Under the pieces are notes generated by a model that saw only the letters and a list, made by a program, of their open reading frames with translations, did no database searches and was not told where the DNA came from. From NCBI RefSeq assembly GCF_036507355.1, contig NZ_AP027877.1: 64,000 nucleotides of DNA; one strand, written 5' to 3'. The translations under genes were made by a program, and so were the position numbers. Below, piece after piece: positions 8,593 through 9,743 of the stretch (positions are counted from its first letter, which is position 1; every line of letters starts with the position of its first letter). Source of the DNA: Escherichia coli (GTDB lineage Bacteria > Pseudomonadota > Gammaproteobacteria > Enterobacterales > Enterobacteriaceae).

Positions 8593-9258
8593 ATGTCACT
8601 TGTCACCGATCTACCCGCCATTTTCGATCAGTTCTCTGAAGCTCGCCAGAAAGGCTTTCTCACCGTCATGGATCTCAAGGAGCGCGGCATTCCGCTGGTT
8701 GGCACCTACTGCACCTTTATGCCGCAAGAGCTCCCGATGGCAGCCGGTGCGGTTGTGGTTTCGCTATGTTCCACCTCTGATGAAACCATTGAAGAAGCCG
8801 AGAAAGATCTGCCGCGCAACCTCTGCCCGCTGATTAAAAGCAGCTACGGCTTCGGCAAAACCGATAAATGCCCCTACTTCTACTTTTCTGATCTGGTGGT
8901 CGGTGAAACCACCTGCGACGGCAAAAAGAAAATGTATGAATACATGGCGGAGTTTAAGCCCGTTCATGTGATGCAACTGCCAAACAGCGTTAAGGACGAT
9001 GCCTCGCGTGCATTATGGAAAGCCGAGATGCTGCGCTTGCAAAAAACGGTAGAAGAACGTTTTGGGCACGAGATTAGCGAAGATGCTCTGCGCGATGCCA
9101 TTGCGCTGAAAAACCGCGAACGTCGCGCACTGGCCAACTTTTATCATTTGGGGCAGTTAAATCCTCCAGCGCTTAGCGGCAGCGACATTCTGAAAGTAGT
9201 CTACGGCGCAACCTTCCGGTTCGATAAAGAGGCGTTGATCAATGAACTGGATGCATGA
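8593..9258 (+). CDS. yjiM: 2-hydroxyacyl-CoA dehydratase component (HgdB-like), N-terminal ORF of a split yjiM
   Basis: MSLVTDLPAIFDQFSEARQKGFLTVMDLKERGIPLVGTYCTFMPQE...; ends ...ELDA at a TGA that overlaps the next ATG. Confidence 0.7.
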   Translation: MSLVTDLPAIFDQFSEARQKGFLTVMDLKERGIPLVGTYCTFMPQELPMAAGAVVVSLCSTSDETIEEAEKDLPRNLCPLIKSSYGFGKTDKCPYFYFSDLVVGETTCDGKKKMYEYMAEFKPVHVMQLPNSVKDDASRALWKAEMLRLQKTVEERFGHEISEDALRDAIALKNRERRALANFYHLGQLNPPALSGSDILKVVYGATFRFDKEALINELDA

Positions 9259-9743
9259 CCGCCCGCGTTCGTCAGCAGTGGGAAGAAGGCCAGCGACTGG
9301 ACCCGCGCCCACGTATTTTAATCACCGGCTGCCCAATTGGCGGCGCAGCAGAGAAAGTGGTGCGCGCGATTGAAGAGAATGGCGGCTGGGTTGTCGGTTA
9401 TGAAAACTGCACCGGGGCGAAAGCCACCGAGCAATGCGTGGCGGAAACGGGTGATGTGTACGACGCGCTGGCGGATAAATATCTGGCGATTGGCTGCTCC
9501 TGTGTTTCGCCGAACGATCAGCGCCTGCAAATGCTCAGCCAGATGGTTGAAGAATATCAGGTCGATGGCGTAGTTGATGTGATTTTGCAGGCGTGCCATA
9601 CCTACGCGGTGGAATCGCTGGCGATTAAACGTCATGTGCGCCAGCAGCACAACATTCCTTATATCGCTATTGAAACAGACTACTCCACCTCGGATGTCGG
9701 GCAGCTCAGCACCCGTGTCGCGGCCTTTATTGAGATGCTGTAA
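9255..9743 (+). CDS. yjiM: 2-hydroxyacyl-CoA dehydratase component, C-terminal ORF of a split yjiM
   Basis: MTARVRQQWEEGQRLDPRPRILITGCPIGGAAEK... in a different frame, joined to the previous ORF by an ATGA overlap at 9255-9258. Confidence 0.7.
   Translation: MTARVRQQWEEGQRLDPRPRILITGCPIGGAAEKVVRAIEENGGWVVGYENCTGAKATEQCVAETGDVYDALADKYLAIGCSCVSPNDQRLQMLSQMVEEYQVDGVVDVILQACHTYAVESLAIKRHVRQQHNIPYIAIETDYSTSDVGQLSTRVAAFIEML

Follow-up and report, generated by a model that had tools for sequence, protein, structure and literature searches.

In the window, the 64,000-nt stretch of Escherichia coli DNA analyzed here, the coding sequence of yjiM is divided between two overlapping open reading frames (ORFs) on the plus strand. 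The first, which starts at ATG 8593, runs for 221 codons (MSLVTDL...INELDA) to a TGA at 9256-9258, whereas the second, which starts at ATG 9255, runs for 162 codons (MTARVRQQ...FIEML) to a TAA at 9741-9743. The tetranucleotide ATGA at 9255-9258, contained in GCATGACC (window 9253-9260), is common to both frames, with the second ORF lying in the -1 frame relative to the first. This layout, including the overlap and its placement within 9253-9260, had been described in the initial annotation and is exact to the base; it is a deterministic feature of the sequence, to which a chance statistic is not applicable. The ORF listing prolongs the first frame to a GTG at 8572 (228 aa), and the RefSeq start of yjiM in relatives corresponds to ATG 8593. 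The features of the locus are the following:

8575..8592, plus strand: GGGGAAGGAAA, Shine-Dalgarno (SD) region of yjiM, serving the first fragment only (anti-SD pairing, -7.2 kcal/mol)
8593..9258, plus strand: yjiM 5' fragment, wild-type codons 1-221 followed by a new TGA; identical to GenBank BED23988.1
9254..9255, plus strand: position of the missing base, an A of GCA ATG lost between or at these two bases
9255..9258, plus strand: ATGA stop/start overlap, a product of the deletion; its ATG is wild-type codon Met222, and its TGA belongs to the shifted frame
9255..9743, plus strand: yjiM 3' fragment, wild-type codons 222-383 followed by the natural TAA; identical to GenBank BED23989.1
9753..10520, plus strand: yjiL, ATP-dependent activator/reductase partner of YjiM, intact (TIGR00241, 358 bits; strong SD of its own, -8.7 kcal/mol)
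10517..10774, plus strand: ytiA (DUF3343, PF11823, Se/S-carrier-like), with which the cluster ends (weak SD, -2.9 kcal/mol)

The division of the gene is due to the loss of a single base. Where the wild type reads GAT GCA ATG ACC, the window reads GAT GCA TGA CC, one A being missing at wild-type nt 663/664. The alignment of yjiM with the closest match, strain 720632, and with K-12 contains one gap column, at wild-type nt 663, and the gap is likewise present against the relative MLI023K1. Over the 1,152 nt of yjiM, the missing A is the sole difference between the window and 720632, and the DNA identity to K-12 is 97.3%. Both 720632 and K-12 encode a single 383-aa YjiM that reads ...ELDAMTARV... 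across the site. The K-12 record and the nucleotide alignment to K-12 thus bear out what the initial annotation had given as the K-12 state, namely, a K-12 protein of about 383 aa in one chain with ELDAMTARV, and what it had proposed as the cause, a 1-bp deletion changing GCAATG to GCATG. The two-ORF form, which would have spoken against that proposal if it were found in K-12 or other strains, was looked for, and K-12 and the strains examined proved to be intact.

Consensus errors most often take the form of single-base deletions in homopolymers, and the one here lies in a homopolymer, albeit a very short one; in addition, the complete genome from which the window derives is apparently outside the RefSeq complete-genome set searched; both points would fit a sequencing or assembly error in a strain whose yjiM is intact. 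We consider such an error very improbable. The deletion allele recurs in the draft assembly GCA_905398635.1 (L005, along with 4 similar places), and a Logan assembly, built from the reads of run ERR3330519, has it too (L010, along with 5 similar places). A comparison of L005 with the window over 6,666 nt gave a single mismatch, a SNP at window position 6199, where L005 has the MLI023K1 base; this SNP separates L005 from the window and implies that at least two distinguishable genomes inherited the deletion. Across 25.3 kb of colinear sequence, the window and MLI023K1 differ by 20 substitutions and 2 one-base indels, with no excess of indels, and the window assembly is not indel-prone. Furthermore, the A run is just two bases long and is not a typical site of systematic error. 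Because the deletion is seen in independent assemblies, indels are few, and the A run comprises only two bases, the deletion is real and, as judged from assemblies, resides in the organism's DNA. At the assembly level, its occurrence in L005 and L010 takes it beyond a single assembly, and the continuous frame that resequencing might have restored did not reappear, with the independent assemblies keeping the deletion.

Other database loci were considered as additional support and rejected. Three metagenome/Logan contigs (L006, L007, and L008) read GCAA(T), that is, the wild-type sequence, and end at or just after codon 221. They are unrelated, short contigs in which the truncated product equals the 221-aa fragment by virtue of the contig end, and they represent a selection artefact that arises when very large collections are queried for exact sequences. 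Of the ten loci matching the 162-aa fragment, only L010 has this deletion; in the other nine, which were discarded as well, the gene caller had defaulted to Met222 on account of N-gaps, different indels, or a substitution.

To place the split allele among its relatives, we compared yjiM across E. coli and other genera. In a megablast search with the 1,151-nt region, yjiM was present in 5,381 of 5,426 complete RefSeq E. coli genomes, and at least 80% of the region was covered in 5,375 of the 5,426, which were counted as full-length. The listed full-length matches each span 1,152 nt and are annotated as yjiM, 'double-cubane-cluster-containing anaerobic reductase'. The deletion allele was found in 0 of the 3,887 genomes that could be aligned with a 61-nt junction probe, all of which matched at 98.4% or less (gapped) and none at 100%; the reach of this probe is 3,887 of about 5,380 genomes, nearby SNPs breaking the megablast seeds in the ~1,500 others. 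Beyond E. coli, the top 120 homologues come from about ten enterobacterial genera (Citrobacter, Klebsiella, Kosakonia, Yokenella, Atlantibacter, Trabulsiella, Cedecea, and others). Each is encoded as one chain, 383-385 aa long with 86-89% identity; the exceptions in length are two calls that are shorter (353-354 aa). The 720632 and K-12 copies of yjiM differ by 30 nt but by 3 aa, with pN/pS = 0.035. These comparisons indicate that the intact single chain is the ancestral state, maintained under strong purifying selection, the split state being a rare, derived one. As expected of a frameshift pseudogene, the frame is broken relative to intact orthologues, in a form that is derived and rare; conservation of the arrangement in relatives, as expected of a translationally coupled gene pair, was found neither in the E. 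coli examined nor in the other genera.

The wider family was searched for split forms. An exhaustive HMMER search of 1.84 billion cluster representatives yielded 3,339 matches; the well-formed sequences in the top 150 are full-length (~377-430 aa) or fused to longer proteins. The break points of 77 partial family matches are spread from ~residue 90 to 360, with no cluster at 221/222. Three sequences from other taxa (P0264, P0270, and P0286) combine 45-105 unrelated N-terminal residues with a YjiM-like C-terminal core that begins at 217-225; these are chimeras, whether through misassembly, as gene remnants, or as real fusions. Among the family matches inspected (the best 150 and the 77 partial ones), there is no precedent for a split at 221/222.

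Public E. coli assemblies contain many other yjiM lesions. These include an 11-bp deletion (L013), two indels on a 4.3-Mb contig (L017), and a K-12-like allele in which the frame is lost after residue 216 (P0151); among L013, L015, L016, and L017, one truncated copy lacks an indel and presumably carries a nonsense substitution. Further truncated products are P0004, P0014, and P0024, and some of the truncated products are encoded on Mb-size contigs. Unlike the window allele, these lesions lie at different positions, and their products acquire aberrant tails or are missing residues. Assembly error probably accounts for some of them, a number being found in N-gap scaffolds or in apparently error-prone assemblies, and others are probably independent pseudogenisations.

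YjiM has been described as a probable class II double-cubane cluster protein (DCCP) partnered with the ATPase YjiL (PMC7317905), and its physiological substrate is unknown (PMC7317905; bioRxiv 10.1101/2022.07.06.499078). DCCP is a homodimer, each subunit of which consists of two Rossmann-like domains (residues 1-193 and 194-420), with the [8Fe-9S] cluster located between the domains and liganded by six cysteines of a seven-Cys motif (PMC7317905). In the alignment with DCCP, the domain boundary maps near YjiM residue 158. The literal 7-Cys regular expression of PMC7317905 does not match YjiM because the loops of YjiM are shorter, and the motif was defined here by those columns of a 52-sequence alignment in which cysteine is invariant or conserved to 90% or more; these are C40, C59, C78, C108, C273, C302, and C335. 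All seven cysteines are encoded in the window but are divided 4 + 3 between the two ORFs, with the conserved Cys40, 59, 78, and 108, plus Cys93, in the 5' fragment and Cys273, 302, and 335 in the 3' fragment, so that the motif is not found on one polypeptide. Consistent with this division, the two products cover complementary halves of the Pfam HGD-D profile (PF06050, 342 positions), the 221-aa piece matching positions 1-175 and the 162-aa piece matching positions 180-342. Against NCBIfam NF040772 (cutoff, 350 bits), the intact 720632 allele scores 531.6, whereas the 5' and 3' fragments score 282.7 and 232.5, respectively; the locus is a disrupted NF040772 member, and neither ORF is a member alone.

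The position of the break was examined in an AlphaFold model of the restored YjiM, built from the 52-sequence diverse alignment with a mean pLDDT of 93.8 and a pTM of 0.91; this run replaced one with 20 enterobacterial sequences (86-89% identity), which gave a pLDDT of 46 and was unusable. In Foldseek comparisons, the model matched DCCP structures 7YZM_A and 6ENO with a TM score of 0.93 and an rmsd of 1.6 Å, and the restored sequence has the DCCP fold of two Rossmann-like domains. In this confident model, residues 221/222 sit midway along a helix of 20 residues (212-231); the first strand of the C-terminal core (241-246) comes after it. Thus, the break is predicted to fall not at the domain boundary but within a helix, and to part the ligands of the two cubane halves.

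Translation of the second half was assessed from the region preceding ATG 9255. No Shine-Dalgarno sequence was found there: the 17 upstream nt pair with the anti-SD at -2.4 kcal/mol, which is the background level, the mean within yjiM being -1.9 kcal/mol and 43% of positions being equal to or better than -2.4. Of the features that characterize a coupled gene pair, the overlapping stop and start are present (ATGA 9255-9258), and a ribosome-binding signal for the downstream start is missing. Because ATG 9255 has no SD, the 162-codon ORF would need termination-reinitiation at the ATGA. Reinitiation without an SD is possible but usually inefficient.

Downstream of yjiM, the adjacent gene encodes the ATP-dependent reductase/activator (YjiL / DCCP-R) and is annotated accordingly in relatives. 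The yjiL stop codon (10518-10520) and the ytiA ATG (10517) form a natural ATGA overlap, such that the operon already used the geometry that the deletion made inside yjiM. The new stop upstream may exert polarity on the intact yjiL and ytiA. Two IS1-family copies lie in the window, one at ~4898-5668, with the brnT/brnA toxin-antitoxin pair on one side and mdtM on the other, and one at ~44284-45051; the second one-base indel relative to MLI023K1, at window 5200, is inside the IS1 copy in the first 25 kb. Colinearity with MLI023K1 ends at window 25256, after which MLI023K1 carries fimH truncated by IS1 and then the fec island. From 25257, the best match of the window sequence is to the full fim operon and island genes of E94-like genomes (92% covered, 98.1% identity); this is a mosaic, IS-rich region adjoining the leuX tRNA island. 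Frameshifted genes are commonplace in E. coli; in the neighboring regions of MLI023K1 alone, both a GGDEF gene and yjgR are listed as frameshifted.

With the deletion established, the initial annotation offered either a pseudogene or a translationally coupled two-chain form; the former is favored, and the latter appears improbable. In a two-chain enzyme, reinitiation at the ATGA would produce chains of 221 and 162 aa that reassemble into an active double-cubane protein, and several features of the locus are compatible with this. The split is clean, with all wild-type residues kept (1-221 and 222-383), and the ATGA has the classic termination-reinitiation geometry at codon 222; yjiM has no other in-frame ATGA. 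Removing one base at any of 20 positions (nt 645-664) would bring the frame to an end at the same TGA, but every residue is kept only when the lost base is an A at 663/664. In the same operon, yjiL and ytiA naturally use an ATGA overlap with a weak SD; the allele has persisted into at least two distinguishable genomes; and the superfamily relatives HadBC and BzdNO are multi-chain assemblies. We nevertheless regard a functional two-chain enzyme as unlikely, given that the arrangement is absent from the other E. coli examined and from every listed orthologue, that the 77 partial matches do not cluster at 221/222 and the three starting near it are chimeras, that the break lies mid-helix and away from the domain boundary near residue 158, that ATG 9255 has no SD, and that the known two-chain relatives join full-length paralogous subunits, not halves. 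The residue-preserving split is a post hoc coincidence, although it is what keeps the idea of reassembly alive. Its bolder form, in which the residue-sparing, ATGA-making deletion gave rise to a naturally split, active double-cubane protein and the persistence of the allele in the clade is explained thereby, appears quite doubtful. Recoding, either by programmed -1 ribosomal frameshifting or by transcriptional slippage, would restore full-length YjiM, and a -1 shift after GCA would indeed exactly recreate ...ELDA-MTARV...; however, the site (CUG GAU GCA UGA) contains no slippery X XXY YYZ heptamer, its two-base homopolymer is too short for polymerase slippage, no SD-like stimulator lies upstream, and the site is a new, unconserved mutation, which leaves this explanation hardly any credit. 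Phase variation was likewise rejected, there being no slippery heptamer and a homopolymer of two bases.

Overall, the evidence argues, in our view with high probability, that a recent, vertically inherited, lineage-restricted 1-bp deletion has made yjiM a frameshift pseudogene in a small E. coli clade. Ribosomes initiating at the normal yjiM start would halt at the TGA just after codon 221 and release a 221-residue N-terminal piece with four of the seven motif cysteines; having only these four, the piece would be unable to hold the [8Fe-9S] double-cubane cluster alone. From Met222, 162 codons remain open and would, at best, be translated at a low level through termination-reinitiation. As judged from the sequence, YjiM activity has most likely been lost or severely reduced; less probably, the locus is a crippled split gene rather than a pseudogene. 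What the window contains is an ordinary young pseudogene and no new gene architecture. No additional lesions are seen in the 3' fragment or in yjiL, although the allele is too young for their absence to weigh.

The observation is correct but ordinary, and its main consequence is for annotation. BED23988.1 (VEE46_37560) and BED23989.1 (VEE46_37570), both labeled 'hypothetical protein' on a 4.64-Mb E. coli contig, should be re-annotated as one frameshifted yjiM pseudogene. The allele can be used as a clonal marker of a small lineage, and its carriers, in which yjiM is mutated by nature while yjiL and ytiA are intact, could aid the search for the substrate of the E. coli double-cubane reductase. 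If the halves did reassemble, the allele would tell how well this metallocluster scaffold tolerates splitting; otherwise, it means little beyond annotation.

K-12 YjiM (NF040772) is the product of this very gene, in the locus mdtM-yjiN-yjiM-yjiL-ytiA-yjiK shared with the window, and is encoded by one 383-codon ORF, in contrast to the 221 + 162 codons of the window. DCCP of Carboxydothermus hydrogenoformans (6ENO; complex structures of DCCP with DCCP-R, 7YYL/7YZM) is homologous over YjiM residues 26-383 (E = 8e-75), and the likeness extends to the seven motif cysteines, which are kept, and to the partner ATPase gene, which is adjacent to yjiM. DCCP differs in being a single 421-aa chain with an N-terminal extension that YjiM does not have; moreover, its chain is whole, whereas that of the window is interrupted inside the C-terminal domain. 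The 2-hydroxyisocaproyl-CoA dehydratase HadBC (3O3M) and the benzoyl-CoA reductases BzdNO / MbdON (8S02, 9G87) share the HGD-D fold (TM, 0.81-0.88) and are genuine multi-chain enzymes with an archerase-type ATPase activator. Their chains, however, are complete paralogous subunits, each with both domains, whereas in the window one subunit has been halved in the middle of a helix.
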